Source: an uncultured delta proteobacterium
GTDB taxonomy: Bacteria > Desulfobacterota > Binatia > Binatales > Binataceae
Assembly: GCA_963794325.1 (NCBI GenBank)
Contig: CAWCDG010000003.1
Span: 320,001-384,000 of the forward strand
DNA: 64,000 nucleotides
Direction: 5' to 3'
Shown: positions 25,066 through 43,618 of the stretch, piece by piece
How the letters are laid out: each line of letters starts with the position of its first letter
Numbering within the stretch: position 1 is the stretch's first letter
Program-made: the position numbers and the translations under genes
The notes under the pieces: model-generated
Seen by the model: only the letters and a program-made list of their open reading frames with translations
Database searches by the model: none
What the model was told of the DNA's origin: nothing

Positions 25066-25071
25066 AAAATC

Positions 25072-25174
25072 AAACCCTTAGAGCAAAAGGGCGTCCTCGC
25101 CATTTTGCGATTAATACTGGGTGCAGGGGTCACCCCTGCCGCGGAAGCGTGAAACCCGCGCAGGGTTTCACATT
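25072..25174 (-). repeat. Tri-hairpin intergenic repeat, copy A
   Basis: GCAAAA-G-GGCG-TCCT-CGCC-A-TTTTGC; GCAGGGG-TCA-CCCCTGC; GTGAAACCC-N5-GGGTTTCAC. Near-identical to 34970-35070. Confidence 0.85.
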
Positions 25175-25193
25175 AGATTAGTGAATTGTTTCC

Positions 25194-26615
25194 CTACCCC
25201 TTATTATCCGGCGGAATCGCCTTCGGCTGCTCCCCACGCTTCAACCCGAACTTGTCGATCCTGTATTGCAGCGTCCGATAGCTCATCGCGAGCATCTTCG
25301 CCGCCTTCGCAATTACCCAGTCGTTGCGCTCCAGCGCTTGCAGAATCGCGTCGCGCTCGAAGGTTTCGAAATTGAACCCCTCGCTCGGTATCTCGTATTT
25401 CTCGCCGCGCTGACGATCGCCGCTGCGCATCGGCGTTTTGCGCGACAGGACCTCCGCCGGCAGATCGCGCGGCAGCACCTTGTCCCCTTCGCAGAGCAGG
25501 ATCGCGCGCTCGATCGCCGACTCGAGCTGGCGCACGTTGCCCGGCCACGAGTAGTCGAGGATCACTTCCATCGCCTCGCGCCCGATCTCTTTCACGCGTC
25601 CTTCCGCCAGATGCCCGAATTTCGCGAGCGCGTGATTCGCGAGTAGCGGAATATCGCCGCGCCGTTCGCGCAGCGGCGGCAGGGTTACGGTCACGACGTT
25701 GATTCGATAATACAAATCTTCGCGGAAGCGCCCCTCGCCGACTTCTTCCACGATATTGCGATTGCTCGCCGCCACCAGCCGCACGTCGATACGAAACGAA
25801 TCGTTGCCCCCGACGCGTCGCAACTCCTTCTCCTGCAGCACGCGCAGAATCTTCGCCTGCATCCCCTGCGGCAGGTCCGCAATCTCGTCGAGGAACAGCG
25901 TCGACTTGTCCGCGCTCTCGAACAACCCGATCTTGCGCTCGGTGGCGCCGGTGAATGCGCCCCGCTCATGTCCGAACAGCTCGTTCTCGATCAGGTTCTC
26001 GGGAATCGCCGAGCAGTTAATCGCGACGAACTGGCGTGACGCCCGCGGCGACAATCGATGGATCGCTTTGGCCACGATTTCCTTGCCGGTGCCGCTCTCG
26101 CCCTGGATAAGCACCGTCGAATTGGACGGCGCGACGCGCCGCACCAGCCGGATCACTTCCTGGATTGCGGGATCCTGCCCGATGATCCCTTCTATCTCGA
26201 AGGTTCCCTCGAGCCGCCGCTTCAGCAGTTGATTCTCCTGCTGCAGATTCGCGAACTCCGCCGCCTTGGCGACCCGCGTCACCAGCTTCTCGCGATCGGT
26301 CGGTTTTTCCAGGTAATCGAACGCGCCGGCCTTCATCGCCTGCACCACGCTGTCCGTCGATCCATGCGCCGTCAGCACCACCACCTGGCTGCCGGGATAT
26401 GCGCCGCGCACTTTCGCCAGTAGCTCCTCGCCCGACATCCCCGGCATCATCAGGTCCGTCAGCACGACGTCGAAGCGCGACAGCGCCAGCAATTCGATTG
26501 CGCGCTTGCCGACTGCCGCCTCTTCGACCGCGAAGCCTTCTTCGCGCAACGTGTCGGCGGTTATGTGTCGTTCGAGGTCGTTATCTTCAACGACCAGTAC
26601 TGAGGCCTGCGTCAT
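25194..26615 (-). CDS. Sigma54-dependent response regulator (NtrC family)
   Basis: REC domain (VVEDND...TDLMMP), GESGTGKE, GAFTGA, LFLDEI, WPGNVRQL, C-terminal Fis HTH. Confidence 0.95.
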   Translation of the reverse strand: MTQASVLVVEDNDLERHITADTLREEGFAVEEAAVGKRAIELLALSRFDVVLTDLMMPGMSGEELLAKVRGAYPGSQVVVLTAHGSTDSVVQAMKAGAFDYLEKPTDREKLVTRVAKAAEFANLQQENQLLKRRLEGTFEIEGIIGQDPAIQEVIRLVRRVAPSNSTVLIQGESGTGKEIVAKAIHRLSPRASRQFVAINCSAIPENLIENELFGHERGAFTGATERKIGLFESADKSTLFLDEIADLPQGMQAKILRVLQEKELRRVGGNDSFRIDVRLVAASNRNIVEEVGEGRFREDLYYRINVVTVTLPPLRERRGDIPLLANHALAKFGHLAEGRVKEIGREAMEVILDYSWPGNVRQLESAIERAILLCEGDKVLPRDLPAEVLSRKTPMRSGDRQRGEKYEIPSEGFNFETFERDAILQALERNDWVIAKAAKMLAMSYRTLQYRIDKFGLKRGEQPKAIPPDNKG

Positions 26616-28095
26616 GATGGTTGTGTCCGTCCATTACCGCGCTCGGCGGGAAGGTGAAAGTCAAAGTGGTCCCGTGTCCATCCCCGTTCGGTCCGATTTC
26701 TATTGTGCCTCCGTGCGCCTCCACGATCGCTTTCGACAAGAACAGCCCGAGGCCGATCCCGTCGCGTTTGGTGGTGAAGAATGGCTCGAACACATGATTG
26801 GCGACGCCCGCTTCGATTCCCGCGCCGGTGTCCGAAAAAGCAATCACCATCGAACCGTCGAGGCGGCTGAACGTGATCCGCATCGTACCGCCTTCGGGCA
26901 TTGCCTGTATTGCGTTGGCGACCACGTTGATAAAGCAGGTGCGCAGCTTCTCTGCGTCCACCTTGAGGATCGGCGTCTCGTTGCATTCCTCGACCAGCTC
27001 GATTCCCTGGCTCTTCATTTTCGATTCCGACAGCGCCACGACCTCATCCACCAGCTGGTGTACGTCGGTCGGCGTCGGAAATATTTCGATCGGCCTCCCA
27101 TAATGCAGGAAGCTCTGCACCAGGTCCGCCAGCCGCCGCATCTCATCCTTCATGATCGCGAGCTGATGCAAAAACGTTTCGCGATCGTTCGGCTGCTGCG
27201 GAGCGTAGCGCGTGCGGATCTGGTCGAGTGACAGGCTGATGAAGTTCAGCGGATTCTTGATCTCATGCGCCAGTCCGCCGGCCAATTGCCCCAGCGCCGT
27301 GAACCGCTCGAGCCGGTTCAGTTCCTGCTCGCGCTCGCGCGCGTGCCTGAGCTGCCCGACCATTTCGTTGAAGCTGCGGGTCAGCAGCCCGATCTCGTCG
27401 CGGCGATGCGCTTCCGGGACCGGCTCCAGTCCACGCGCCGCAAAATTTTGCGCCGCACTCGCGACCGCATGGATCGGCTTCACGTAGCGGTCCGCCAGGA
27501 TATACGCGAACACCAGCCCGATCGCAAAAATCGCAAACGCAAATAGCAGCTCACGCGTTCGGCTCTGCGCCAGGGGCTTCGCGAAGTCTCCGAAATTCGC
27601 CACCACCTGCACGTATCCGAGCAGATGGTCTTCGACTTCGACCGGGATCAGGTAAACCGTGGTCTCCGGCGCGAGTCCGATCTTGCCGGCCGGGATCGTC
27701 ACCAGTGAATCCGGATGCTTGAGTTGTTCGGGGGTTAGCCACTCCGCCTGCTTTGGCCGTAGCGCCGCGCCGATCAGTTGCGGATTCGAGCTGTTGAGGA
27801 TCAGATTCTCGCTCGACGCGATCGAGACTTCGAGGCCCTGGGTGTGCAGATTGTCGACATAGTGATGGAGCTGATCGCGATCGGTGTCGCGCACCGCGGT
27901 CAATTCCTGCACGCCGATCTGAATCACGCGCGCCAGGTCCTTGACCCGCTCCTGCGTGGTCGCGACGATTTCCGCCTGCGTCCCAAGGCTGACCCAAACC
28001 TCCGCGCCCAAGGTCAGCGTAAGCAGGCCGACCACCAGAACGATCAGCTTCGCCTTGAGGTTAAGCGCGGGAAAGTAGGTTTCCATTTTCGCCAT
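26587..28095 (-). CDS. HAMP-domain sensor histidine kinase
   Basis: 2 TMs, HAMP (DEIGLLTRSFNEM), H-box AHEIKNPL, N/G1/F/G2 boxes. Confidence 0.93.
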   Translation of the reverse strand: MAKMETYFPALNLKAKLIVLVVGLLTLTLGAEVWVSLGTQAEIVATTQERVKDLARVIQIGVQELTAVRDTDRDQLHHYVDNLHTQGLEVSIASSENLILNSSNPQLIGAALRPKQAEWLTPEQLKHPDSLVTIPAGKIGLAPETTVYLIPVEVEDHLLGYVQVVANFGDFAKPLAQSRTRELLFAFAIFAIGLVFAYILADRYVKPIHAVASAAQNFAARGLEPVPEAHRRDEIGLLTRSFNEMVGQLRHAREREQELNRLERFTALGQLAGGLAHEIKNPLNFISLSLDQIRTRYAPQQPNDRETFLHQLAIMKDEMRRLADLVQSFLHYGRPIEIFPTPTDVHQLVDEVVALSESKMKSQGIELVEECNETPILKVDAEKLRTCFINVVANAIQAMPEGGTMRITFSRLDGSMVIAFSDTGAGIEAGVANHVFEPFFTTKRDGIGLGLFLSKAIVEAHGGTIEIGPNGDGHGTTLTFTFPPSAVMDGHNHHDAGLSTGR

Positions 28096-28120
28096 CGGCG
28101 CGCCGGCCGCCGCGCATAGT

Positions 28121-28753
28121 TTATTCCGGCAATCCGCTCTTTTCAGCCGGAGCCGGCTCGCTGGTCTTACGTATTACCATCAACCGGGTTCCGTATATCG
28201 CAACGCTCAACACCGCGACGACCACTAATAGCCGCTCGAAGCCACCGATGTATCTGACCACCCACTCGAGCTGATGCCCGAACACATAGCCCAGCGTCAC
28301 GACGATCGGCACTGAGATCAACGCTCCCAGCAAATCGTAAAACAGGAACACCGCCGGCTTGACCCCGAAAGATCCGGCCGACAAATAAACCAGCGCGCGC
28401 AGACCGGCCAGGAATCGCGCGTAGAAGATCGCGCGATGCCCATGGCGCTGCATGAATGCCTCGATCCGCTCAATCTGATGCTTGCGGCCCGGCCGGCCGA
28501 GAGAAAAGTAGCGCACCAGTCCCGATCCAAAGTGCCGCCCCAGGAAAAACAGCGAGTTGTCGCCCGCCACCACGCCCAGCAGCGACACTGCCAGCGTGAT
28601 CGGATAGCGCGTGATCCCGCGATGTACCAGGTAGCCGCCCGCCAGCAGCGCAACGTCTTCGGGTATCGGCAATCCAAGTCCGCACAGCATCAGAACTACG
28701 AACAATCCGAGGTAGGTGAAGTGTTCGATGTACGCGGAGATCAGTCCGACCAA
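28121..28753 (-). CDS. DedA family membrane protein
   Basis: GLGLPIPED, AGDNSLFFLGR, ARFLAGLR. Confidence 0.9.
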   Translation of the reverse strand: MVGLISAYIEHFTYLGLFVVLMLCGLGLPIPEDVALLAGGYLVHRGITRYPITLAVSLLGVVAGDNSLFFLGRHFGSGLVRYFSLGRPGRKHQIERIEAFMQRHGHRAIFYARFLAGLRALVYLSAGSFGVKPAVFLFYDLLGALISVPIVVTLGYVFGHQLEWVVRYIGGFERLLVVVAVLSVAIYGTRLMVIRKTSEPAPAEKSGLPE

Positions 28754-28755
28754 GC

Positions 28756-29178
28756 TCAGCTCCCGTGCGCGTAGCGCGCGCGCAGTGCGTCGCGGATTTG
28801 TTCGACCGGCATGCCCCGGCTCGCCATCGCCTCGGCATCGCGAGCCTCACCGCAGCAAATCGCGCAGGTGCTCCCGTGAGTATCGCGAAAGCAATCGAGC
28901 AGGTTCTTGTGACCGTCCGTCACGTCGCATCCGCAGTAGCAATGCAACTGCGCCAGCAGCGCGGGATCTTTCTCCGCTACTTCGTAGGCCTCGCGCACCG
29001 TGCCCTGGAAATTCTGCGGGTCGAGCGTGATGCGCAAGTGCGCCCCCGGATCGCCGGCCGCCGCCAATTGCCCATCCGATGGATGCGAAGTGCTCGATGT
29101 GTAACTCGCATATGCGATCGCCACCACCAGCAATGCGGCGGCGGTAAGTGCGACAATTCCCTTGATACCCTTGAACAT
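28756..29178 (-). CDS. PCYCGC/CYCxC-motif exported protein
   Basis: N-terminal TM; LHCYCGC...HKNLLDCF...HGSTCAIC. Confidence 0.8.
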   Translation of the reverse strand: MFKGIKGIVALTAAALLVVAIAYASYTSSTSHPSDGQLAAAGDPGAHLRITLDPQNFQGTVREAYEVAEKDPALLAQLHCYCGCDVTDGHKNLLDCFRDTHGSTCAICCGEARDAEAMASRGMPVEQIRDALRARYAHGS

Positions 29179-29199
29179 GAGTCTCCCCGTGCCCCAAAA

Positions 29200-29871
29200 T
29201 TATAGCATCTCGATGAACCTTAGGCTTTGATTCGCGAAACTATATAGAGCGGCTGGCCGATGAGGCCCGCGGCGCGTATGCGGCAGCCGTTTCAGCATCG
29301 CCATCGCCAGAATACTGCGCCGAAAATTTCGCCGATCGAGCGGCCGCCCCAGGATCAGCGAGTACAGCTCCTCGAACTCGGCAAACGTGAATTCGCGCGG
29401 CAACAACGCATACGCGATATTGGTGTATTCCAGTTTCGACTTCAGCCGCTTCACCGCATACGCCGCCATCTGCGAATGGTCGTAGGCCAGCTGCGGCAAG
29501 CGCGTGACTTCGTACCAGCCGCCATTCGCATACTTGTCGCATGGCGCACTGACCGCGCCGGCCTCCGGAATCAGCGCCATGTAGGCGACCGACACCACGT
29601 GCGCTCGAGGATCGCGCGACGGATCTCCAAACGTGAACAGCTGCTCGAGATAAGCCCCGCGCAGTCCCGTCGATTCGTGCAGCTCGCGTCTCGCCGCATC
29701 GTCCAACAGCTCGCCCACTCGCACCAAACCGCCCGGAAATGCCCACTTCCCGCGCGCCGGCCCGCGTCGCAGCTCGACCAGGTAGGTCTGCAATCGCCCG
29801 TCGTTGATCGCGAACAGCACCGTATCGACCGCGACCATCGGCCGCGCCGGCTTTTCCCCGCCCTCGACCAC
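29200..29871 (-). CDS. nrtR: NrtR-family Nudix/winged-helix regulator of NAD metabolism
   Basis: VAVD, WAFPGG...AARRELHESTG Nudix box, EQLFTFGDPSRDPR, DRRNFRR, RPAALY; adjacent to nadA. Start uncertain (GTG 29871 or ATG 29838). Confidence 0.85.
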   Translation of the reverse strand: MVEGGEKPARPMVAVDTVLFAINDGRLQTYLVELRRGPARGKWAFPGGLVRVGELLDDAARRELHESTGLRGAYLEQLFTFGDPSRDPRAHVVSVAYMALIPEAGAVSAPCDKYANGGWYEVTRLPQLAYDHSQMAAYAVKRLKSKLEYTNIAYALLPREFTFAEFEELYSLILGRPLDRRNFRRSILAMAMLKRLPHTRRGPHRPAALYSFANQSLRFIEML

Positions 29872-29888
29872 GCTCTGTGAGTTCGCGC

Positions 29889-30899
29889 TCAGACGCTGAG
29901 CTCGAGCATCCGCTCCAGTGCGCGCTTCGCTCCCTCGCGCACCTCCTCGGTCAGCTCGATTTCGTAGCGCAGGTGGCGAAGCGAATCGAGCGTGCCCTCG
30001 AGCGTGATCATCTTCATGAACCGGCATAACTTGCACGCCTTGTAAAAATGCTTGTCGGGAATTTCCATCAGAAGACGGTCGGACAGCCCGCATTCGGTGA
30101 CAACCAGGAATTTATCCGCGTCGCTGCTCTTGGCATACGCGACCATCGCGCTCGTTGACAGCACCGCGTCCGCCAATGCCAACACGTCGCGGCGACACTC
30201 CGGATGCGCAATCACCTTGATTCCGGGAATCGCGCGCTTGACCTTGTTCACCTCGTCGGGGGTTATCTGATGGTGCACGTAGCAGTTGCCGTCCCACGAA
30301 ATCACCCGCTTCTTGGTCTGCCCTTGCACGTAGTTCGCAAGATTCTGATCCGGCACGAACAGAATATTGTCGGAGTCGATCCGCTCGACGATCTTCGCCG
30401 CATTCGCCGACGTGCAGCACGCATCCGACAGGGCCTTCACGTCCGCCGTGCAATTCACGTACGATACCACCTTCAGGTCGGGATAAATCTTCAGCAACTC
30501 TTCCTTGCGATCCGCGAGCGCCTCCGCGGTAACACTGTCGGCCAGCGAGCATCCCGCCTTGAGATCGGGCAGCAACACCTTGCGGCCGGGATTGAACACC
30601 TTCGCCGTCTCCGCCATGAAATGCACGCCGCAAAATACAATCACGTCGGCGTCGCGCACGTCGCGCGCATTGCGCGCCAGTTCCAGCGAATCGCCGATAA
30701 AGTCCGCGACCTCGAAAATCTCCGGCCGCTGATAGTTATGCGCGAGAATCACCGCCCGCCGCTCCTTCTTCAGCCCCCGGATCTCCGCAATCATCTCCGC
30801 ATAACGGCGGTACGTCTCATCCGTGTAACTATCGTTCCCGAGCACCGCGAACTTCTCACGCAGCGCCCCGGCATCAATCGCATTCTGTGCAGCTTCCAT
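29889..30899 (-). CDS. nadA: Quinolinate synthase
   Basis: ILAHNYQ, GDSLELA, FCGVHFMAE, AGCSLAD, YVNC, PDQNL, AHPEC. Confidence 0.95.
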   Translation of the reverse strand: MEAAQNAIDAGALREKFAVLGNDSYTDETYRRYAEMIAEIRGLKKERRAVILAHNYQRPEIFEVADFIGDSLELARNARDVRDADVIVFCGVHFMAETAKVFNPGRKVLLPDLKAGCSLADSVTAEALADRKEELLKIYPDLKVVSYVNCTADVKALSDACCTSANAAKIVERIDSDNILFVPDQNLANYVQGQTKKRVISWDGNCYVHHQITPDEVNKVKRAIPGIKVIAHPECRRDVLALADAVLSTSAMVAYAKSSDADKFLVVTECGLSDRLLMEIPDKHFYKACKLCRFMKMITLEGTLDSLRHLRYEIELTEEVREGAKRALERMLELSV

Positions 30900-30925
30900 A
30901 ACGATCAATCCTCGTGACCCAATAC

Positions 30926-30946
30926 TTTGCGTCAATCTGACACTTA
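30926..30946. promoter_or_regulatory. Putative NrtR operator upstream of nadA
   Basis: 21-bp imperfect palindrome TTTGCGTCAATCTGACACTTA with a GT-N7-AC core, 27 bp upstream of the nadA ATG. Confidence 0.7.
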
Positions 30947-31063
30947 CTCGATCCAGTGATCCGACGCAACCCTCTGTTTCTTCCCCTTTCACCAGGTTCG
31001 AAGCCGGCCTGCGGGCAGTTTGACCATATCGGTTCGCCCACAGTACCTTTCGACGAGATCCCT

Positions 31064-32689: not shown

Positions 32690-32799
32690 GGTGTTCGCCC
32701 CGTGAACGTTACCCCCTCGTTTTTCGGCCACATGAGTCCACCGCCGATCACCAACCGCGCATCTTCGGCTGATAAGGACGGAGTTGAGGAGTCAATACA

Positions 32800-33945: not shown

Positions 33946-33953
33946 ACGCGATT

Positions 33954-34034
33954 GTTCCTCTTCCCTCGAGGGAAGAGGTTACTCCTCACAAATCCGGTTC
34001 CCCTTCCCTCGAGGGAAGGGGTTAGGGGTTAGGT
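33954..34034 (+). repeat. REP-like CCCTTCCC-N-GGGAAGGG(GTTAGG)n module, half copy plus full copy
   Basis: CCGGTTCCCCTTCCCTCGAGGGAAGGGGTTAGGGGTTAGG recurs at about 37520, 38959 and 47891. Confidence 0.8.
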
Positions 34035-34039
34035 TCTTC

Positions 34040-34771
34040 TCACTCGCCGCGCGCCAACTCATGCAACGCCCGCGCGCATTCCACCGGATGCGTAAACATC
34101 ACCTCGTGCCCGCTCTTCACGAACTTCAACGTCGGATTCTTCAACCTGCTCGAAAAATGCGGATGCCAATTGGGCGCACCCGCGACCGGCGTCTGATCGT
34201 CCTCGCACACGAGATAGCTGCTGGGAATGCCGGTAGCGAAGTAGGGCGCCATCGCCACCGGCGTCATCATCGGCGCGATCGGCTGAGGTCCCACCGCCGA
34301 CAGCACGTATTCCTTCAGCGCCGGCGCCATATCGTTGCTGAGCCCCTCAACAAATTCCTTCCCCATCATCTCGATCGGGATCGATCTCTCCGGCATCGAA
34401 TCCGCCCCCGCCGCGATCGGCGAGGTCGCCGGATCAATTATGGGCTGCCCATCGAGTGCCACCAGCGCCGTGACCCACACCACGCGCTTTATCCGCGACG
34501 GAATCTTTGCCGCGACGCCGGGAATCGTAAGTCCGCCGAGACTATGCCCCGCGAGCACGACGTTCTTCAGATCGTGCCGCTCAATAAATTCCGCGACACT
34601 ATCGACATAGCTCTGAAGGCTTACCTTGGATCGATCCGCCCGATTCATCCCATGCCCCGGCAGATCAACCGCATAAGCGCGATCGCCCAACTTCTCGAGC
34701 TGATTGATAACCGCAGCCCAGCACCATGCGCCATGCCAGGCGCCATGCACCAAAACAAAAGTCTCCGCCAT
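34040..34771 (-). CDS. Alpha/beta hydrolase (methylesterase-like)
   Basis: FVLVHGAWHGAWCW, DLPGHG, GHSLGG nucleophile elbow, SGHEVM. Confidence 0.9.
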   Translation of the reverse strand: MAETFVLVHGAWHGAWCWAAVINQLEKLGDRAYAVDLPGHGMNRADRSKVSLQSYVDSVAEFIERHDLKNVVLAGHSLGGLTIPGVAAKIPSRIKRVVWVTALVALDGQPIIDPATSPIAAGADSMPERSIPIEMMGKEFVEGLSNDMAPALKEYVLSAVGPQPIAPMMTPVAMAPYFATGIPSSYLVCEDDQTPVAGAPNWHPHFSSRLKNPTLKFVKSGHEVMFTHPVECARALHELARGE

Positions 34772-34813
34772 TTTCTTTCCCTCTGTTCTCCTAAGTGGGT
34801 CGCGGCAAAAAAA

Positions 34814-34946
34814 GATCCGGGATTCTTCGCTGGGCTCTGAATGAAACAAAGACTGAGCAGCCTGGCTTTGTGATGTGATCGCAGAACCCTCACCTACCGG
34901 CGGCTACGCCCGCCGGCCTCCTCTCCCGTAAAGTAACGGGCGAGGT
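34814..34946. repeat. Mosaic of REP-like palindromes
   Basis: CCGGGATTCTTC...CTGAATGAAACAAA module (also at 39060-39142), plus CCGGCGG-N-CCGCCGG and CCTCTCCCGT-N-ACGGGCGAGG hairpins. Confidence 0.65.
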
Positions 34947-34969
34947 AAATTCCCGCCCGCCTCCGCCCG

Positions 34970-35070
34970 ACCCTGAGAGCGAAAGGTTGTCCTCAACATT
35001 TCGCGATTCTCAGTGGGTGCAGGGGTCACCCCTGCCGCGGAAGCGTGAAACCCGCGAAGGGTTTCACATT
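34970..35070 (-). repeat. Tri-hairpin intergenic repeat, copy B
   Basis: GCGAAA-G-GTTG-TCCT-CAAC-A-TTTCGC followed by GGGTGCAGGGGTCACCCCTGCCGCGGAAGCGTGAAACCCGCGAAGGGTTTCACATT. Confidence 0.85.
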
Positions 35071-35093
35071 TAATCAAGTGATTTCCCCTTCCC

Positions 35094-36308
35094 CTAACTC
35101 GCGACCGGCGTAACTTCCTGACCCTCTTTCAACGTCGCCGCCGGCACTACGATCACCATCTCGCCGCCGCTCAGTCCCTGCTTGACCTCGATGCCGTCCT
35201 GAAACTCGCGCCCAACCGTGATGGGCACCAGATGCACCGTATCGTCGCGCACGACCCACACCGAGTTGGCGCTACCGTCCGCGACGATCGCCTTCTTCGG
35301 CACCAGCACCATCGGCGCCGCCGCGGTCTGCGTCACGATCGATTGGAACGTCACCTTGGCGCTCATTTCCGGCTTGATAATTTTGAGGTCCGGCTGCAGG
35401 ATTTTGACCTCGACTTTCACCGTGCCTTTCTGCCGGTCGGCCTCCGGATAAATCTTCACCACCTGCGCCGTGAACGGATTGTCCGGATACGCATCCGGGA
35501 TCACCGTCGCCGGCGTGCCCATCTTGACCTTGGCGATATCGCTTTCATTGATATCGACTTCGCAACGCAAATCGCTCAGGTCCGCGAGCTGCGCGATATC
35601 GGTCGCGCCGCCGCCGCCCGGACTCTGGCCGAAGGCTGTAATCGTGTCGCCGAGTTCGCGATATTTCTGCAGCACCACGCCATTGATTGGCGACGTGATC
35701 ATCGTCTGGCTCACGTTGAACTTCGCGAAATCGATCGCGCCTTTGGCCTTGTTGAGCTCGGCTTCCGCTACCGATAGCTGATTCTCCGCGTCATCGAGCG
35801 CGTCCTTCGATTGCACTCCATCCTTATAGAGCGCGCGGAGCCGTTCCGCCCGCGCCTTTTTCAGCACGACATTCGCAGCGGCCAAATCGCGATCCGCGTA
35901 GGCCTGCCGCAACTGGGCCTGGTAATCGCGATCGTCGATCCGCGCGAGCAGGTCGCCGACTTTGACCTGCTGCCCTTCTTCGATCGGCTCGGCGAGTATC
36001 TGCCCGAGAATCTTGGTGCCGATCACGATGTACTTATGCCGCGTGATTATATACCCGCTGCCGGTCAGCACCGTGCCCGCCTGTCCCGCCTGCTTGACGC
36101 TGACGATCGCAGTCTGCACCTCGGGCGGACGGCCGAGCGTCTTTTGATAAACGACATATCCCGCCGCACCGACGACGCCGAGAATCGCGAGCGTGATCAC
36201 AACCGGCACTATCCGGCTCGGCTTTTTCGGATTCGCCGCGCGCGCAATCCGGAGCGACTCGAGCTCGCGGATATTCGGCCCCTTTGGTTGCTCGGTGGAC
36301 AAGGTCAC
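35094..36308 (-). CDS. Efflux periplasmic adaptor subunit (MacA/HlyD-like)
   Basis: N-terminal TM, EEGQQVKVGDLLARID lipoyl half, ITSPINGVV, EVDINESDI. Confidence 0.9.
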   Translation of the reverse strand: MTLSTEQPKGPNIRELESLRIARAANPKKPSRIVPVVITLAILGVVGAAGYVVYQKTLGRPPEVQTAIVSVKQAGQAGTVLTGSGYIITRHKYIVIGTKILGQILAEPIEEGQQVKVGDLLARIDDRDYQAQLRQAYADRDLAAANVVLKKARAERLRALYKDGVQSKDALDDAENQLSVAEAELNKAKGAIDFAKFNVSQTMITSPINGVVLQKYRELGDTITAFGQSPGGGGATDIAQLADLSDLRCEVDINESDIAKVKMGTPATVIPDAYPDNPFTAQVVKIYPEADRQKGTVKVEVKILQPDLKIIKPEMSAKVTFQSIVTQTAAAPMVLVPKKAIVADGSANSVWVVRDDTVHLVPITVGREFQDGIEVKQGLSGGEMVIVVPAATLKEGQEVTPVAS

Positions 36309-37468: not shown

Positions 37469-37481
37469 CTAATTCCTATGC

Positions 37482-37779
37482 CCGATCCCCTTCCCGCGAG
37501 GGAAGGGGTCTCCAACAATCCGGTTCCCCTTCCCACTAAGGGAAGGGGTTAGGGGTTAGGTTCCTAAGCATCATTCGCAATCCCAACCGCATCGCATCTT
37601 TCGTTCCTAACCTCTCCTTGTCCGAGGAGAGGTCGGCGAAAGCCGCGTAGCGGTGTCGCCGGGTGAGGTGCAACGCCAGACATTTCAGTCGATCCATACT
37701 CGATTCCGAAAGCCAGAAAGTGGCGCCGCCCCCGAGCACTGCACCTCTCTCTAACCCTCTCCTTGGACAAGGAGAGGGC
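37482..37779. repeat. Mosaic of REP-like palindromes inside the ABC operon
   Basis: Two CCCTTCCC-N-GGGAAGGGG modules (one with GTTAGGGGTTAGG), and ACCTCTCCTTGTCCGAGGAGAGGT and CCCTCTCCTTGGACAAGGAGAGGG hairpins. Confidence 0.8.
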
Positions 37780-37798
37780 ACTGGACAAAGGTTTCTCC

Positions 37799-38938
37799 TC
37801 ACGCAACCGTCCTCAATGCATCCACAATATTCCGCCGCGCCGCCGAGCTCGCCGGCACCATCGCACTCAACAGTCCTATCAACGCCGCAACAATCAGGGT
37901 TTCAGCCAGGATCGCCGGCGGCATCCGGATCGTTCCCAGCGGTCCGCCCACGTTGCCGACTGAAAATATCTTCAGCAGCACATAAGCCGATCCACACCCT
38001 ATAACCCCTCCGATAAGTCCTATGATCAAAGACTCGGCCAGCAGCAGAGACAAGATGGTGCGCGACGGAAATCCCATCGATCGCATCACCGCTATCTCGC
38101 CGCGCCGCTCGCGTATCGACATAGCCGCCGTATTCGCCGCGACCAGTCCTATCGTCAGCACCACGATAAATCCCAACAGCTCAGCCATCCTGAAAAACGT
38201 GCGGTACTGATCGAGGAAGCCGCCGATAAAGGCCGCCTCCGATTCCGACAAGGTCTCCGCCGACGAGTTGGCAAAGCCTTCATCGATAGTCGCAATCACC
38301 TGCGGCACGTTCTCCGGCTTATCCACCTTTATCCACATGTTATCGACGACACCGGGCCGGCCGGCAGCTTCTTCCAGGTAGTCTCTCCTGAACAACAGGA
38401 AATTCGGCGGCGCCTTGCCGCCAATCGTGCCTACGATTTGCAGCGTCACGTTGAACGGATAGAGCGTACCGCGCAGCTGTATCTGCTGCCCCAGATGCAG
38501 ATGAAAGCGCTTCATCGTCTCTGTGCCGACCAGCGCCGCGGTGCGAATCTTCTTGAACTGTTGGAACTGCTCCGGACTGATCCCCCAGTCGGGCCACATC
38601 TTATCGACATTCTCGGGATCAGCCGCCAGATTCGGAAACTGATCCGACACCTCATGGTACACGCCGCCAAACCAGCTCTCCGGCACCACTACCTCGACAT
38701 GCGGCAACGTAGCGACCCGCTGCTTGTAGGCAATCGGAATCGAGTAGGCCAGACCGGCCTTGTTATGCATCGCAATTCTGGTCGAGGAAGCCGTATTCCC
38801 GAGGATCTGATCGGCGACCGTGGGCACGCTAACCAGCGCCGAAAAAATAAACAGCGAAACCGCAATCGACAGCACAGTCAAAAACGTCCGCCGCTTACTC
38901 CGAACCAGATTCTTAAAAACGAGTGCCGTATACTTCAT
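37799..38938 (-). CDS. ABC transporter permease (MacB/FtsX family)
   Basis: NLVRSKRRTFLT, NTAAMSIRERRGEIAVMRSMGF. Confidence 0.9.
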   Translation of the reverse strand: MKYTALVFKNLVRSKRRTFLTVLSIAVSLFIFSALVSVPTVADQILGNTASSTRIAMHNKAGLAYSIPIAYKQRVATLPHVEVVVPESWFGGVYHEVSDQFPNLAADPENVDKMWPDWGISPEQFQQFKKIRTAALVGTETMKRFHLHLGQQIQLRGTLYPFNVTLQIVGTIGGKAPPNFLLFRRDYLEEAAGRPGVVDNMWIKVDKPENVPQVIATIDEGFANSSAETLSESEAAFIGGFLDQYRTFFRMAELLGFIVVLTIGLVAANTAAMSIRERRGEIAVMRSMGFPSRTILSLLLAESLIIGLIGGVIGCGSAYVLLKIFSVGNVGGPLGTIRMPPAILAETLIVAALIGLLSAMVPASSAARRNIVDALRTVA

Positions 38939-38956
38939 AAGACTAACCCTCGATAC

Positions 38957-39142
38957 ATCCGGTCCCCCTTCCCGCTCGGGAAGGGGGTAGGGGTTAGGTT
39001 GCCAATCATCCTTCACCACCAGCATCGCTCACGCGCATCAGGGCGAGGCAAAGAAGGAGCCGGGATTCTTCCCCTTCGGCTGCGCTCAGGGCTTCGGCAG
39101 GTGGAAGCGGAATTATCCAGAAGCGACCTGAATGAAACAAAA
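38957..39142. repeat. REP-like modules inside the ABC operon
   Basis: CCGGTCCCCCTTCCCGCTCGGGAAGGGGGTAGGGGTTAGG and the CCGGGATTCTTC...CTGAATGAAACAAA module. Confidence 0.75.
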
Positions 39143-39144
39143 AC

Positions 39145-39218
39145 AAACCCCGAGAGCGAAAGGTCGTCCTCGACATTTCGCGATTTCCTATCACCGGGTG
39201 CAGGGGTCACCCCTGCCG
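39145..39218 (-). repeat. Tri-hairpin repeat, copy C (lacks the GTGAAACCC hairpin)
   Basis: GCGAAA-G-GTCG-TCCT-CGAC-A-TTTCGC and GGGTGCAGGGGTCACCCCTGCCG. Confidence 0.8.
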
Positions 39219-39243
39219 CCCGCCGCGCAGGCGATTACCTTCC

Positions 39244-39969
39244 TCACGCATGCGCCGCCTCGGCCGGCGCTCCTCGCTTCCCCGGTTCAACCCCGGCCAA
39301 CACTCCCTTATCCAGCCGATAAACCGTATCCACATACCGCTCAGCCCGCGGGTCGTGCGTGACCATCACGATCGTCTTCGAAAACTGCCGATTCATATCC
39401 ACCAGCAATCCCAAAATTTCCTCAGCCGACTTCGCATCGAGATCTCCGGTCGGCTCGTCAGCAACAATAATCGTCGGGTCCGCCACAATCGCGCGCGCAA
39501 TCGCAACCCGCTGCTCCTGCCCGCCCGACAGCTGCCGTGGATAATGGTCCATCCGATCCGCGAGTCCGACGACCTTCAGCGCGGTCTCGACATGCTCCCG
39601 CCGCTCGGCCTTGTTCAGACTGGTCAGCAGCAGCGGCAACTCGACATTCTCAAACGCGGTCAGCACCGGAATAAGATTGTAGAACTGGAATACCAACCCG
39701 ATATGCCGCGCGCGCCAGCCGGCCAGGTCGCGCTCCTTCATCCCGGTAATTTCCTCACCGCCGACCGCCACTCGCCCGGTGCTCGCGTGATCGATTCCCG
39801 CGATCAGGTTCAGCATAGTGGTCTTACCCGACCCCGACGGCCCCATAATCGCGACGAAGCGCCCGACCGGAATCTGCACCGTCACATCGTCGAGCGCGCG
39901 CACTTCGAATTCGTCGCGCTTATAGATTCGGGTCACGTGTTCGAGATCGATTGCGTACTTTTCGTCCAT
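39244..39969 (-). CDS. ABC transporter ATP-binding protein (LolD/MacB type)
   Basis: [32 protein letters not shown]. Confidence 0.95.
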
Positions 39970-39997
39970 GACGATCCTTCCCTTTAACCCGTACCCT

Positions 39998-40576
39998 TCA
40001 CTTCCCCAGAGCGGCGATGTGGGTTGTTTTCAGCCGCGATATACGGCGTCGCTTAATTTGTATCTCACGCTTCAATTGCGAAGCTAAGCTCGCCAGCACC
40101 CGCGCCTTGGCCTCGGTAATCGCACGCCCGAGCTCGACCATCGTGATGCGTACCGGGCTCGCACCCGCCCGCCGCATCCCGGCGACCATCTCGCCCAGGA
40201 TAGAGGTGCGCTGTTCGTCGTCGCGTCGCGCTCGCTCCATATGCTCGAGCGCAATTTCGGGCTGCTGGTCCGCGAAATAAATCTTTACCTGCGTCTCGTC
40301 GAATACGAACAGCGGCTGCGCCGGCTCGCGCAGCATCTTGATAAAATACGCCCGGCCGCGCGGCGTGATCGCATAAATCTTCCGCGCCCGCCGTCCGCGC
40401 CGTTCCGTCCGCAACTTGACCAGCCCGTCGCCCGCCAGTTTCTTCAGCGCCGGGTATATCGATCCGTCGCTGACCCGGTAGAAAAACCCGACCGGGTCCT
40501 GAAACCGCTGCTTCAGGTCGTAGCCAGTCGCCTCCGACTCCATCAGAAACCCGAGGATCGGAAATTTGACATCCAT
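39998..40576 (-). CDS. PadR family transcriptional regulator
   Basis: ILGFL...TGYDLK...[10 protein letters not shown]...YAITPRG. Start could lie further upstream. Confidence 0.88.
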
Positions 40577-40703
40577 CCGCGGCGGCGTCTTGTTGTATTC
40601 CAAAAACGCCGACTTCGCCGGAAAGAGCTGAGCGCCGGGACGTTCGCGACGCAGTCCGTTCACGCTCGAGATTGACGACACCTGATGCATACCCATCAAG
40701 CCA

Positions 40704-40729
40704 ATAGCTCGACTTGAGCTATGAGTCAA
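40704..40729 (-). promoter_or_regulatory. Inverted-repeat operator next to a -35 hexamer upstream of the padR-ABC operon
   Basis: ATAGCTC-GACTT-GAGCTAT (40704-40722) just downstream of TTGACT on the minus strand (40729-40724). Confidence 0.55.
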
Positions 40730-40744
40730 CGAGCGTGGAAGAGA

Positions 40745-41275
40745 TCACGATGCAGCAATCCAGCTGCGCATGCTACGAAAGACGCGCCCGAGATTGCTCG
40801 AACCCGAAAGCGGCGCGGTTCGCGCACCCGCCGCAACCAGCTCGCGCATCCGCGCCGGTTCCGGCTCCGTGCCGAACACCACATCCCAGATAGGCGTGGT
40901 CACGCCGAAAATCGCGTCCGGCTCGCGCAAATGATGCGCCAGATGCCGCGCGCGCAGCCGCTCCTCAACCGCGCACGACGGCGTCGCGAAATGAATCCGG
41001 TAGTGCACGTACTCATACACACCGAATCCCGCGACGATACCGAACAAAAAGATCATCCCCGGCGCCGTCCCGAAGATGGCGGCCAATACGATCAACACGA
41101 CAGCGCTGGGAATCCACGCCCGTATCGCAAACACCGCGCGTGGGTCGACATGATGCTCATTATGCAGCGGCGTCACAAACGTCCGATGCGAATGCCCAAG
41201 CACCCCGTGAATGATGTATTCAAGGAGCGTCCACGCAAACACTCCCCCGACAAAAATCAGCGCACCAGCAATCAC
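40745..41275 (-). CDS. Fatty acid hydroxylase / sterol desaturase superfamily protein
   Basis: His boxes EYIIHGVLGH, HNEHH, YEYVHYRIH, HLAHH; FGVTTPIWDVVFGT. Confidence 0.88.
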   Translation of the reverse strand: MIAGALIFVGGVFAWTLLEYIIHGVLGHSHRTFVTPLHNEHHVDPRAVFAIRAWIPSAVVLIVLAAIFGTAPGMIFLFGIVAGFGVYEYVHYRIHFATPSCAVEERLRARHLAHHLREPDAIFGVTTPIWDVVFGTEPEPARMRELVAAGARTAPLSGSSNLGRVFRSMRSWIAAS

Positions 41276-41378
41276 CGCATGATCTTAGAACGCCTCCACC
41301 CCCTTATCAACGCAGTCCCCCGATTGCATGCATCGCGAAGTCGATGGCGGGCACGGCGGCCCGCCCCCACTGGAGTTC

Positions 41379-41407
41379 TTGACACCCTATTCAAGGATTG
41401 GAATACT
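41379..41407 (+). promoter_or_regulatory. Sigma70-like promoter with overlapping palindrome upstream of the carotenoid oxygenase
   Basis: TTGACA (41379-84), 17-nt spacer, AATACT; TATTC-N8-GAATA at 41388-41405. Confidence 0.5.
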
Positions 41408-41445
41408 CTAATTCCCCAGCACGAAAAGGAAGTCGAGGTGACGAC

Positions 41446-42813
41446 ATGCACGACTCAGCCAATCCCTACCTGACCGGCAACTACGCTCCGTGGCGCGAGG
41501 AAACTGACGCGTTCGACCTCGAGATCGACGGCGAGCTGCCGCGCGAGCTCAACGGCGCCCTTTATCGCATCGGCCCCAACCCGCACTTCAAGCCGCCCGG
41601 CCGCTACCATTGGTTCGACGGCGACGGGATGGTCCATGCGTTCATCCTGCGCGACGGCCGCGCCGCCTATCGCAATCGCTACGTCCGCACTGACGGCCTC
41701 AAGGCTGAGATGAAAGCGGGGCGCGCGCTGTTCGGGGGATTGCTCGAGCAGCCGCGCGAGATGACCCCCGATCTGCCGCCATTCAAGAACGCTGCGAACA
41801 CCAATATCATCGGCTACGCCAACCGCTTGCTCGCGCTGTTCGAAGCCGCGTCGCCGCACGAGCTCCAACCGTTGACGCTCGAAACCATCGGCCTGTTCGA
41901 TTTCGGCGGCAAGTTGACCGGTCCCGTCACGGCGCATCCGAAGTTCGATCCCGTCACCGGCGACTTGCTGTTCTTTGCCTACCAACCGTTTCCGCCGTAC
42001 GCGACTTGGTACCGCGCGAGTCGCGACGGCAAGCTCCTCGAGTCGCGCCCAATCGATACCGGACTGCCCGTGATGATGCATGATTTTATCGCGACCGATA
42101 ACTATGCGATCTTTTTCGTGTGCCCGTCCGTGTTCCATCTCGAGAACGCGGCGGCGGGGAAGCCGCTCTTCAATTGGGAGCCGCAGCATGGAACCAAAAT
42201 CGGCGTGATGAACCGTAAGACCGGCGACGTGAAATGGTTTCAGGACGAAGCGTTCTTCATCTTTCATTTCCTGAACGCGTACGAAGAGCACGGGTCGCTG
42301 GTCGTCGATGGATGCAGAATGGAGTCGCTCGACATGAGCGGCAATTCATTTGGCGGCAAGCCTGCGATGCCGTGGCGATGGAATCTGAATCTTAAAGAGG
42401 GCTCGATGCGCCAGCGGCAAATCGATGACCTACCCTCCGAATTTCCGCGCTTCGACGAGCGCATCGCCGGCCGCAAGCATCGCTACGGCTACTTCGCCGG
42501 CGGCAATCCGGTATCTCCGCAACATGAGACGAGTTTCAAGGCGCTGCTCAAGCGCGACTACCAGACTGACAAACTCGAAGCTCACGACCTCGGCAAGAAC
42601 TTCGCTCCCGGAGAGCCGGTCTTCGTGCCACGCTCCGCGAAGTCGTCCGAGGACGATGGATGGGTGCTCGCGGTCTGGTATGACGAGGCGCTCAACCGCA
42701 GCGAGATGGTGGTGCTCAACGCGCAGAATTTCGCGGGCGCGCCCGTCGCGAGGATCAAATTGCAGCATCGCGTGCCGTGGGGCTTCCACGGCAACTGGGT
42801 GCCCGCGCAATGA
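41446..42813 (+). CDS. Carotenoid oxygenase / lignostilbene dioxygenase family protein
   Basis: NPYLTGNYAP, HWFDGDGMVH, TAHPK, MMHDF, FHFLNAYE, EFPR, GEPVFVP, GFHGNW (four Fe-binding His). Confidence 0.93.
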   Translation: MHDSANPYLTGNYAPWREETDAFDLEIDGELPRELNGALYRIGPNPHFKPPGRYHWFDGDGMVHAFILRDGRAAYRNRYVRTDGLKAEMKAGRALFGGLLEQPREMTPDLPPFKNAANTNIIGYANRLLALFEAASPHELQPLTLETIGLFDFGGKLTGPVTAHPKFDPVTGDLLFFAYQPFPPYATWYRASRDGKLLESRPIDTGLPVMMHDFIATDNYAIFFVCPSVFHLENAAAGKPLFNWEPQHGTKIGVMNRKTGDVKWFQDEAFFIFHFLNAYEEHGSLVVDGCRMESLDMSGNSFGGKPAMPWRWNLNLKEGSMRQRQIDDLPSEFPRFDERIAGRKHRYGYFAGGNPVSPQHETSFKALLKRDYQTDKLEAHDLGKNFAPGEPVFVPRSAKSSEDDGWVLAVWYDEALNRSEMVVLNAQNFAGAPVARIKLQHRVPWGFHGNWVPAQ

Positions 42814-43481
42814 AGAAGGCGACACGCTCCGCGCGCGCAATCGGCGACCTGCGTGTTCCCACCAGGAAAGCGTCGCTTGATCTCGCGCTGCTCGGATTGA
42901 TCGCGGAAGTGCCCGGCGTGTCCGGCTACGACATCATGAAGATCTTCGATCTGTCGATGGCGCATTACTGGCATGCGCATCCGACACAGATCTATCCGAC
43001 CCTGGAGCGCATGGAGTCGCTCGGGCTGATCAAGAGCCGCAACGTCGTGCAGCGCAATCGCCCGAACAAGCGCCTGTACACGATCAGGCCCTCGGGCGAG
43101 AGATTGTTGATCGAATGGCTCGAAAGCGGGTTCGAGGGAATCAACCTGAAGCATCCGCCGTTGCTGCGATGCCGGTTCCTCGGAAATCTCGGACCCGACC
43201 GCGCGATCGCAGCGCTCGAGGAGGAGCGCGAGGCGTGGGCGCGGCATCTGAAGGTTTATCGGCAACTCGAGCAGGGCTATTTCGCGGGCGGGAAAAGCTA
43301 TCGCGACGTGAACGCGATGTTCTCGTGGTTCACGCTCAAGCGCGGGATCGATTGGATGGAGGAAAATATCGGATGGTGCGAGTGGGCGATCGCCGAGATC
43401 GAGCGGAATCGCGCACTGTTCCCAGCCGAGAATATGCGCACCCAGATGAAGCCGCCGATACGAGCAAAACAATCCGCTTGA
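42810..43481 (+). CDS. PadR family transcriptional regulator
   Basis: SGYDIMK...QIYPTLERM...PNKRLYTI; ATG overlaps the oxygenase stop. Confidence 0.88.
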   Translation: MKKATRSARAIGDLRVPTRKASLDLALLGLIAEVPGVSGYDIMKIFDLSMAHYWHAHPTQIYPTLERMESLGLIKSRNVVQRNRPNKRLYTIRPSGERLLIEWLESGFEGINLKHPPLLRCRFLGNLGPDRAIAALEEEREAWARHLKVYRQLEQGYFAGGKSYRDVNAMFSWFTLKRGIDWMEENIGWCEWAIAEIERNRALFPAENMRTQMKPPIRAKQSA

Positions 43482-43485
43482 TTTC

Positions 43486-43548
43486 AATGTGAAACCTTCC
43501 CGGTTTCACGCTTCCTGGGCAGGGCTAAGCCCTGCACCTTAGTATTAA
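43486..43548 (+). repeat. Tri-hairpin repeat, copy D (inverted, two hairpins)
   Basis: AATGTGAAACC-TTCCC-GGTTTCACGCTTCC-N-GGCAGGGC-TAA-GCCCTGCACC-N-AGTATTAA; reverse-complement relative of copy A. Confidence 0.8.
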
Positions 43549-43618
43549 GAAAGATGCGGGCCCGAGCGAGTGCCGTAACCTTTTCGGGGCATTGCGGTTT
43601 CTGTAGATAGAGGCTGAT

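Follow-up and report, generated by a model that had tools for sequence, protein, structure and literature searches.

A mosaic family of intergenic hairpin repeats in Binataceae

The window analysed here is a 64,000-nucleotide stretch of the genome of an uncultured delta proteobacterium of the family Binataceae (GenBank assembly GCA_963794325.1, contig CAWCDG010000003.1, positions 320,001 to 384,000 of the forward strand). It contains exactly four copies, named c1 to c4, of an intergenic repeat assembled from small hairpins around a 17-nt core hairpin, B. The four copies probably belong to a mosaic family of non-coding repeats that are dispersed in Binataceae (candidate phylum Binatota), lie between genes at many unrelated loci, and resemble bacterial interspersed mosaic elements (BIMEs) and BOX elements; they are probably not a dedicated regulatory signal. 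The family is genuine and previously undescribed. In kind it is ordinary, of the type of repetitive extragenic palindromes (REPs), BIMEs and BOX. We know of no cultured representative of Binatota.

Modular structure and extent of the family

The full form of the repeat, read in the sense of the upstream gene, is composed of a leader, hairpin A1, a linker, hairpin B, a spacer, and a C module. The leader is purine-rich and AT-rich, with the consensus GGGGAAGGGGAAATCACTTnATTnAAT. Hairpin A1 has nine base pairs, and its arms GTGAAACCC and GGGTTTCAC enclose a 5-nt loop. The pyrimidine linker (GCTTCCTTC), conserved as RCYUCCUU, connects A1 to core hairpin B, which reads GGCAGGGG-TGA-CCCCTGC (GCAGGGG-TGA-CCCCTGC) and is followed by ACC. 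A short purine-rich spacer separates B from the C module, which in its C1 version has the sequence GCGAAATGnnG-AGGA-CnnCmTTTCGC. The alternative 5' hairpin A2 is GCGGGGC-loop-GCCCCGC. Module C2 is GATGC-GGGAC-TTCG-GTCCC-TGTTAGAA. The loops of most C2 modules are TTCG, TCCG, or TGCG; UNCG tetraloops are known to be stable.

We scanned species-representative genomes with a pattern that fixed hairpin B only and left its closing pair and loop free. At least 134 loci matched. The matches listed come nearly all from about 34 assemblies, which are labelled Candidatus Binatus, Binataceae, or "uncultured delta proteobacterium"; these Binataceae-type metagenome-assembled genomes (MAGs) belong to Binatota according to the NCBI taxonomy. 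Together with the four copies in the window, there are at least 150 distinct instances, 137 of them Binataceae-type. Twelve loci of other taxa were set aside: seven from Polymorphobacter, one each from Prevotella, a cyanobacterium, and Dehalococcoidia, and two overlapping ones from a Desulfovibrionaceae MAG.

The modules on the two sides of B vary. Among the 150 listed instances, the 5' module is A1 in 102, A2 in 8, and A3 in 8. The 3' module is C2 in 45, C1 in 24 (28 in a looser pass), C3 in 8, C5 in 5, and C4 in 3, with 65 instances having none or an unclassified one. Most listed loci carry a single B. The cluster at locus L086 has the order leader-A1-B-C4-B-C5-B-C5 and faces an inverted C4-B-A1. 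An earlier reading of the window, made from its sequence only, had described a tri-hairpin unit. The repeat is instead a mosaic of exchangeable modules around core B, since its copies combine B with alternating A1, A2, or A3 and with C1 to C5 or no C module. It is non-coding in position: 76 of the 78 copies with long flanks (at least 700 nt on both sides) lie outside called genes.

The four window copies greatly exceed what chance would give. Pattern searches of the 64-kb window returned four matches to core hairpin B, three to the AGGA hairpin (C1), and three to the GTGAAACC hairpin (A1), each against 0.00 expected. A covariance model built from 101 family members, with which the entire window was searched with filters off, recovers the same four copies (Table 1), and these are the ones that the sequence-only reading had located. 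The remaining matches to the model are palindrome echoes on the reverse strand, and the next candidate reaches 6.8 bits (E = 6.7). The copies are incomplete in different ways, as had also been noticed earlier: 39145-39218 is without A1, and 43486-43548 is without C1.

Modules insert into one another, because nested insertions split C2 at two loci. There, in L098 (~100-150) and L120 (~320-370), the C2 hairpin is interrupted by an insertion of about 20 nt (…GTAGTTTACCCTGAGTACTCG…).

Some copies were found under other taxonomic labels. Loci L079 and L110, from a MAG labelled Candidatus Acidiferrales (an order of Acidobacteria type), have a typical A1+B+C2 arrangement, which may reflect mis-binning, mislabelling, or a wider host range. 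The loci from the alphaproteobacterium Polymorphobacter (L004, L042, L085, L100, L106, L107, and L114) contain an identical 21-nt core, GGCAGGG(G/C)TGA(C/G)CCCTGCACC, preceded by GCCTCCGGCG. In L107, this core forms a REPIN-like inverted doublet with copies 30 nt apart. The Polymorphobacter core hairpin either has an independent origin or is common to an unrelated phylum.

Turnover at orthologous sites

Synteny with the window at 34-45 kb is found in loci L027-L030, L053, L057, and L112, whose flanking genes are 78-90% identical to those of the window. At the site of c2, the window has A1, B with the loop TGA, and C1, whereas L030 has A1, B of the CTAAG variant, and C2. The gene end, the leader, and the A1 stem are common to both, while the A1 loop, the linker, the closing pair and loop of B, the tail, and the 3' module differ together. 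The site of c3 is occupied by A3+B+C1 in the window, by leader+A1+B+C2 in L053, and by a degenerate A1+B with a C2-like module in L028. At the site of c4, the window, L057, and L112 have in common A1+B with the rare CTAAG loop, followed by three different sequences between B and the conserved upstream region of the sigma-factor gene.

Two further spacers of the region differ in whether they hold the element. The spacer between the PadR-family gene and the ATP-binding cassette (ABC) ATPase gene carries A1+B+C2 in L027 and A1+B in L053; in the window, it has no element and about 50 nt of unrelated sequence. In the spacer between the two FtsX permease genes, L028 has A1+B+C1 right after the stop codon, and the window has other palindromic modules. 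The family therefore spreads and turns over, since orthologous spacers carry the element, none, or different modules. Copies that insert, are lost, and are overwritten by others again and again would produce such a pattern, whereas a fixed regulatory site does not fit it.

The same sites offer a natural experiment. The same gene junction bears different hairpin modules in sister species, and metatranscriptomes could show the effect of the modules on operon expression.

Conservation of the hairpin stems

The stems of the hairpins are maintained by compensatory substitutions. For 101 A1+B sequences, RNAalifold predicts exactly hairpins A1 and B. When this structure is specified, 95.1% of the alignment cells are paired, as opposed to 90.2% in shuffles, and 113 cells are changed on both sides, as opposed to 36.2. 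The covariation score is reached by none of 500 shuffles, and sliding the partners by 1-3 columns lowers the pairing to 37-53%. Three pairs of A1 covary (GC/AU/UA/CG, UA/CG, and AU/GC), with 10, 10, and 17 double changes, respectively. Six of the seven pairs of B carry no covariation information, because they were imposed by the search pattern. The free closing pair of B is paired in all 101 sequences (GC in 87, CG in 11, UA in 2, and GU in 1).

Hairpin C1 was outside the search pattern and was scored in 28 sequences. In these, 95.5% of the cells are paired, four pairs have double changes, and the score is reached by 0/500 shuffles. The stem of module C2 exists in five or more versions, each with arms that complement one another (GGGAC/GTCCC, GGGGC/GCCCC, GGGC/GCCC, GGCC/GGCC, and GGCGCGC/GCGCGCC); owing to indels, these were compared without a formal covariation score, in 45 of the 50 listed copies, after three false positives and two copies with nested insertions had been dropped. 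Selection on structure had been proposed from the window copies alone. The compensatory pairs then quoted are present in the window, and in the much larger alignment compensatory substitutions preserve hairpins A1, B, and C1. The mismatch and the AGGA loop of C1, which had been called invariant, are so inside the window but vary in the family: of the 28 sequences, 9 have T.C at the mismatch site and 19 a T-A pair, and their loops read AGGA (21), CGGA (3), AGTA (2), AAGA (1), and AGGC (1).

The AGGA loop had also been compared with binding sites of CsrA/Rsm proteins, which would make the element a CsrA-controlled 3' untranslated region (UTR). The one point in favour of this idea is the GGA in 24 of the 28 C1 loops. 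As C1 is optional, being found in 24 of the 150 listed instances and elsewhere often replaced by C2-C5 or absent, and as each element offers a single site with no link to start codons, where CsrA targets usually have several that overlap a ribosome-binding site, while the remaining loops read AGTA, AAGA, and AGGC, a role of the repeat as a CsrA target appears scarcely credible from its sequence.

The family has no counterpart among described RNA elements or mobile replicons that we searched. Rfam 15 gives no match in the window at the gathering threshold. Below the threshold there is only noise: the element itself gives nothing better than E = 1.9, and in L046 a microRNA model matches another place with E = 0.025. 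The element thus matches no Rfam family at gathering as well as permissive E-values, in agreement with the earlier suggestion that it is undescribed. Copy c2 has no blastn match in plasmid and phage collections. Keyword and core-motif searches of the literature returned no description of repeats in Binatota.

Orientation and position relative to stop codons

All four copies in the window follow a Pfam-supported gene and lie in the sense of that gene. The orientation of the family was determined with genes called by a codon log-odds model trained on the Pfam-supported genes of the window. The first set comprised the 78 long-flank instances. Relative to the element, their flanking genes are both co-oriented in 31 cases and in two more with an open reading frame (ORF) over B, convergent in 18, divergent in 14, and both opposite in 12; one case is left unassigned. 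Fifty-one of the 78 copies lie behind a co-oriented gene. Inspection of the 29 not-sense cases showed strong calls for the opposing genes and revealed no overlooked sense ORF with its end at the element. A second method, which agreed with the first in 65 of 67 calibration cases, was applied to 53 further instances, nearly all with 300-nt flanks. Its 42 confident calls comprise 29 sense and 13 antisense copies; 11 low-confidence calls were not counted.

In the combined set, 80 of 120 copies lie behind a co-oriented gene (binomial p = 0.0003). Within co-directional spacers, 33 copies are sense and 12 antisense (p = 0.0025). The sequence-only reading had every copy in the sense orientation close behind a stop codon. 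This is correct for the window, and in the family it applies to about two thirds of the copies, a bias of roughly 2:1. The orientation is nonetheless not random relative to transcription.

The position of the stop codon is narrowly defined. In 48 of 49 sense copies, it precedes B by 16-77 nt (median 49), so that it falls in or at the leader. The CTTnATTnAATGTGA stretch of the leader contains stop triplets in all three frames, and the stop lies inside this conserved stretch in 9 of 38 A1-type copies. In L053, the PadR-family gene upstream of the ABC ATPase, which corresponds to the gene at 39998-40729 of the window, reads into the leader and ends on its TAA. The window version of this gene ends about 12 codons earlier. 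The gene preceding c4 is a different PadR-family gene and likewise ends on the stop of the leader. A leader bearing stop codons explains the stop-proximal copies that were the main observation of the earlier reading. In the PadR-family genes of L053 and c4, it also illustrates that the final codons of a host gene can be rewritten by a repeat.

Rho-independent termination, either by the genome's ordinary terminators or by a terminator repeat similar to SPRITE, is very unlikely as an explanation of the elements. Copies are located directly after stop codons, and T-rich runs follow some C modules: c1 and c3 have GGGTTTGATTTTG-type tails, and the C1 version of L019 is a 14-bp stem followed by AGTTTTTT. 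However, a terminator-like hairpin with a T tract is present on the sense strand of 18 of 131 copies and on the antisense strand of 34 of 131, from which we rejected the canonical intrinsic terminator. Terminator-like sites are not commoner in the window than in its shuffles (23 versus 17.5, standard deviation (s.d.) 4.5). Copies are also found within operons, with the next start codon a few dozen bases further on, as in c3 and L053.

The GC skew of the window is -0.08 to -0.19 at 24-42 kb and +0.08 to +0.12 at 42-52 kb. Gene orientation and the strand of the element also switch at about 41-42 kb. The skew looks linked to transcription rather than to a replication origin, because the flanks of the window are near zero.

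Relation to known repeat families

The repeats share with the REPs and BIMEs of Enterobacteria, Pseudomonas, and Stenotrophomonas that they are short GC-rich extragenic palindromes with compensatory changes, form mosaics and clusters with other motifs, and are found at gene ends and inside operons. REPs are imperfect extragenic palindromes of about 20-40 nt in many copies; core hairpin B resembles them in that it is an extragenic palindrome of 17-21 nt with at least 137 Binataceae-type instances in about 34 assemblies. The units of the present family mostly point one way, and the B units of L086 are direct, in contrast to the alternating units of BIMEs. The core is moreover embedded between other, different hairpins, and the host is from a different phylum. 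The consulted part of a study of REPs associated with REP-associated tyrosine transposases (RAYTs) defines them by a GT(A/G)G head, which is conserved and stands at the foot of the palindrome on its 5' side (PMC2817692). Hairpin B is without this head: the foot on the opposite strand reads GGTGCAGGGG, and in the consensus the stem is bordered by neither GTAG nor GTGG. None of the REPs that this part of the paper lists is similar in sequence to the family. REPIN doublets are not matched either, as the inverted B pairs, 139-208 nt apart, are formed by two composites (between convergent genes in L006 and L049, divergent genes in L046, and co-directional genes in L079).

It is improbable that B is a true REP, moved as single-stranded DNA by a RAYT or an IS200/IS605-type Y1 transposase encoded elsewhere, with an orientation bias that reflects the direction of replication. 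IS200/IS605 transposition uses guide-sequence pairing. Hairpin B, GC-rich and extragenic, occurs singly, in tandem clusters, and with inverted partners, and the identical 21-mer of Polymorphobacter is found in REPIN-like inverted doublets (L107). If replication set the orientation, a sense bias of about 2:1 would follow, given that genes tend to be co-oriented with replication. Read from the opposite strand, B (GGTGCAGGGG...) resembles the arrangement of head and palindrome that Table 1 of PMC2817692 gives for REPs. The palindrome is not adjoined by the GT(A/G)G head, however, and GGTGC comes closest to it. Inverted doublets are rare in Binataceae, and those present consist of a pair of composites placed face to face where two genes converge. 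The 72 ORFs scanned, from the window and next to inverted B pairs, contain no match to Y1_Tnp.

The BOX repeats of Streptococcus pneumoniae and S. suis (boxA-boxB(n)-boxC, with alternative boxD/E/F) offer a likeness in architecture. As described in the consulted part of their source (PMC3049150), they are modular, with variable middle and end modules, lie between genes, form stable folds, and differ in site composition between strains. The present family has the same type of build, with the fixed order leader-A-linker-B-C and A and C modules that alternate or are absent. According to the same part of that source, BOX, RUP, and SPRITE repeats are enriched near gene 3' ends and have a strand bias of 61-63% that mirrors the coding bias (PMC3049150), and the roughly 60% bias of BOX is similar to that seen here. 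BOX ends, by that description, pair like terminal inverted repeats, whereas matching ends are present in 1 of 22 copies of the Binataceae repeat. Each module of the latter is its own hairpin of 17-35 nt, unlike the BOX modules of about 45-60 nt given there, and the two have no sequence similarity.

Two other groups bear a partial resemblance. Pneumococcal SPRITE elements, which are similar to Rho-independent terminators, are enriched right after the 3' ends of genes, as are the repeats studied here. A SPRITE, as the consulted part of PMC3049150 has it, is one long stem with a U-rich tract, in contrast to the present repeat, of which 18/131 copies have a terminator signature in the sense direction. 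ERIC/IRU and Correia-type elements, which are miniature inverted-repeat transposable elements (MITEs), are likewise small non-coding repeats in transcribed spacers, and for ERIC the same part of the source reports orientation-dependent consequences (PMC3049150). They differ in being single units with terminal inverted repeats and target duplications, neither of which was found in the Binataceae repeat.

The earlier suggestion of a REP- or MITE-like mobile unit holds in part. The family is dispersed and REP-like, with presence or absence and replacement of modules at orthologous sites, but it is not a strict MITE, as the reverse complement of the leader is present within 250 nt downstream in only 1 of 22 leader-bearing copies. 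Integron attC sites were also rejected: the neighbours are syntenic housekeeping or operon genes, and the window contains no integrase (no formal core-site search was made).

Covariation between the A1 loop and the linker

Positions outside the hairpin stems also covary. Of 99 sequences that could be scored, 46 have G:C at the middle base of the A1 loop (alignment column 81) and the base that immediately precedes B (column 111), 43 have C:G, one has U:G, and nine have no pair. Sequences that are otherwise nearly identical (0-2 other differences) form 80 neighbour pairs with a double switch of 81-111 and 8 with a single change. The candidate pairs flanking 81-111 are C-G (88 CG, 6 UG) and G.U (75 GU, 7 AU, 3 GC). 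Seven C:C mismatches at 81-111 belong mostly to the window's own subfamily, which has a shorter linker; in our reading, a one-base register shift would restore pairing in these sequences. Complementarity of loop and linker in any register is no better than with shuffled partners (2.16 versus 2.10, s.d. 0.03), and only the position-specific covariation therefore stands.

The linker is nearly invariant, with C102 in 101/101, T104 in 100/101, C105 in 100/101, and C106 in 99/101 sequences. Its column 103 is always identical to column 89 of the A1 stem (TT in 84 and CC in 17 of 101). No switch of the two columns was seen on an identical background. The identity fits a base triple of the pyrimidine motif; subfamily linkage would give the same result. 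The linker variant ACCUCCUU presumably resembles the 3' end of 16S rRNA.

A second long-range covariation connects the middle base of the B loop (column 121) with the base after GCACC (column 134), with GC in 78 sequences, AU in 19, and other combinations in 4. Pseudoknots have loop-length limits, and by this geometry pairing of 121 with 134 was rejected as sterically incompatible with the 7-bp stem of B. The covariation may be a matter of subfamily linkage. A helix between GGAAGG of the leader and CTTCC of the linker was also rejected, as leaders stay the same where the linker is CCTCC.

It is conceivable, if doubtful, that the A1-linker-B core is a mobile, self-contained folded motif. In such a fold, the triloop base of A1 would pair with the base that precedes B, as part of a three-pair pseudoknot helix stacked on B, and the linker would run along the A1 helix, with base 26 matching stem base 20 in a U.A-U or C.G-C triple. 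The long-range signals could arise from folded RNA, from a folded single-stranded DNA intermediate, or from templated mutation. If the loop-linker covariation does represent a pseudoknot, it would be unusual for a REP-like repeat. Formed in RNA, the motif would represent a pseudoknotted element of a new class, located in 3' UTRs or between cistrons and spread by a repeat, which might serve as an exonuclease block or a dock for a protein. Formed in single-stranded DNA, it would be the recognition fold of an undescribed transposition system.

A related proposal gives the core a function: it would be a folded cis-acting RNA of 3' UTRs and intercistronic regions, an H-type pseudoknot stacking on B that binds a protein or blocks exonucleases and is kept by selection for this role rather than by selfish spread. 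We regard this as unlikely. The 80 double switches against 8 single changes at 81-111, the near-invariant linker, and the identity of columns 103 and 89 are what such an RNA would display; the candidate G.U pairs beside 81-111 exist on the sense strand only, and transcription from a neighbouring gene could read 65 of 78 copies in sense. The helix, however, would have only three pairs, and its any-register score hardly differs from that of shuffles. The same pairing could form in single-stranded DNA, no relative is present in Rfam, and 12 of 78 copies are antisense to both neighbours. Module swaps at orthologous sites are not expected of a tuned regulatory RNA.

Proposed origin and possible consequences of the repeats

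We favour a dispersed mosaic repeat, the copies of which would be made by a copying or recombination process, with resident copies being overwritten by gene conversion. Insertions may be tolerated best at the extreme 3' end of a gene and in sense, where the leader would close the reading frame at once and the promoter side would stay untouched. Such tolerance could account for the 2:1 sense bias. REPs are known to affect mRNA 3' ends, as in malE-malF of E. coli. Once transcribed, the hairpins of the Binataceae repeat might form structures at mRNA 3' ends or between cistrons and, like REPs, slow exonucleases there, which we would consider a side effect and not a designed signal.

Several observations weigh against this account. 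No transposase domain is present in 62 ORFs of the window or in 10 ORFs next to inverted B pairs, and no copying machinery was thereby found. At the PadR-ABC spacer, the sole orthologous site available in filled and unfilled states, no target duplication is visible; it is not a clean empty site, and none can be read there because unrelated sequence of about 50 nt occupies the site in the window. Tolerance at gene ends is not the whole story, because divergent spacers hold 14 of the 78 long-flank copies, and both neighbours run opposite to another 12. These orientations rest on our own gene caller, which matched the Pfam-supported genes in the region checked (20-48 kb of the window), the check being limited to window genes and the 65/67 cross-check. 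The linker is more conserved than the stems. Stem mismatches in our own tally of the pair tables comprise about six G.U and five A.C, and as these are nearly equal, the tally is uninformative on the strand. Finally, a DNA repeat that is purely selfish would have no need of the two long-range Watson-Crick covariations, which hint that the element takes up a specific fold.

A library of the modules (A1, A2, A3, B, C1-C5, and the D, E, and G modules) helps in the annotation of Binatota MAGs, since the palindromes would be likely to break assemblies and to be miscalled as small ORFs or as C-terminal extensions.

Window copies and their surroundings

The coordinates of the copies, their hairpins, and the adjacent genes are listed in Table 1. 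Copy c2 has a fold z-score of -4.15. Copy c3 is placed in what looks like an operon of a MacB-type transporter, with an ABC ATPase, two FtsX permeases, and HlyD. Copy c4 lies between the PadR gene and the gene of an extracytoplasmic function (ECF) sigma factor. No tRNA genes were found in the window.

Table 1 Repeat copies, their hairpins, and adjacent genes in the window. Bit scores are those of full-length copies in the covariance model.
Feature	Position	Strand	Basis or score
Copy c1: stop of NtrC-type regulator gene (25194-25196), degenerate leader, A1, linker, B, C1, U-rich tail	25062..25196	-	82.6 bits
c1 upstream gene: Sigma54_activat, Response_reg, and HTH_8 domains	25194-26615	-	Pfam
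c1 hairpin A1, GTGAAACCC-loop-GGGTTTCAC	25149..25171	-	exact pattern match
c1 core hairpin B, GCAGGGG-TGA-CCCCTGC	25123..25139	-	pattern, covariance model
c1 hairpin C1, 11 pairs with T.C mismatch, AGGA loop in gene sense	25083..25108	-	pattern match, fold
Copy c2: TAG stop of HlyD gene (35094-35096) abutting leader GGGGAAGGGGAAATCACTTGATTAAAT, then A1, linker, B, C1	34960..35096	-	86.3 bits
c2 upstream gene: HlyD_D23/HlyD_3	35094-36308	-	Pfam
c2 hairpin A1	35045..35067	-	pattern match
c2 core hairpin B	35019..35035	-	pattern, covariance model
c2 hairpin C1	34979..35004	-	pattern match
Copy c3: stop of ABC ATPase gene (39244-39246), A3 (TCGCCTGCGCGGCGGGC) replacing A1, B, C1, U-rich tail	39137..39246	-	30.1 bits
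c3 flanking gene: ABC_tran	39244-39969	-	Pfam
c3 flanking gene: FtsX/MacB_PCD	37799-39025	-	Pfam
c3 core hairpin B	39200..39216	-	pattern, covariance model
c3 hairpin C1	39156..39181	-	pattern match
Copy c4: TGA stop of PadR gene (43479-43481) within leader motif CTTGATT, then A1, linker, B (CTAAG variant), truncated start of C2 (GATGCGGG...)	43479..43562	+	60.6 bits
c4 hairpin A1, 8-pair version	43489..43509	+	pattern match
c4 core hairpin B, closing pair C-G, loop TAA	43519..43535	+	pattern, covariance model

Other palindromic modules are interspersed with the repeat. Module D is the palindrome CCCCTTCCC-N4-GGGAAGGGG, often followed by TTAGGGGTTAGG, and is located at 33957-33978, 34000-34049, 37487-37508, 37525-37576, 38965-39014, and 47894-47921 of the window. 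The pattern of its core hairpin has four matches in the window, with 0 expected. Module D also follows C modules in L017, L036, L046, and L116, and one of its arms resembles the leader of the main element. Module E (CCTCTCCTTGTCC...GGACAAGGAGAGG) is found at 37611-37623 and 37756-37777 of the window and at ~340-380 of L112. Its place in the window is right after the stop codon of the first FtsX gene, where L028 has A1+B+C1.

Shorter motifs accompany the copies. The motif TCATTCAGAGCCCAGCGAAGAATCCC lies downstream of c2 on the minus strand (34819-34844), with related repeats at 34798-34828 and 39041-39071. The same motif, of the GTGTCATTCAGAGCGAAGCGAAGAATC type, is found after C1 or C2 in numerous loci (L011, L012, L041, L057, L061, and others). 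Between a GGACT-family gene and c1, a 28-nt inverted repeat (24989-25016 and 25040-25067, 96% complementary) forms two terminator-like hairpins (CACAGGCTTCAGCCTGTG), one per strand.

The gene at 1012-3855 on the plus strand of the window encodes a protein of 947 amino acids with a DUF7948 domain, an Ig-like domain, and five SBBP beta-propeller repeats. DNA repeats of about 200-216 nt within this gene account for most of what the repeat finder returned for the window.

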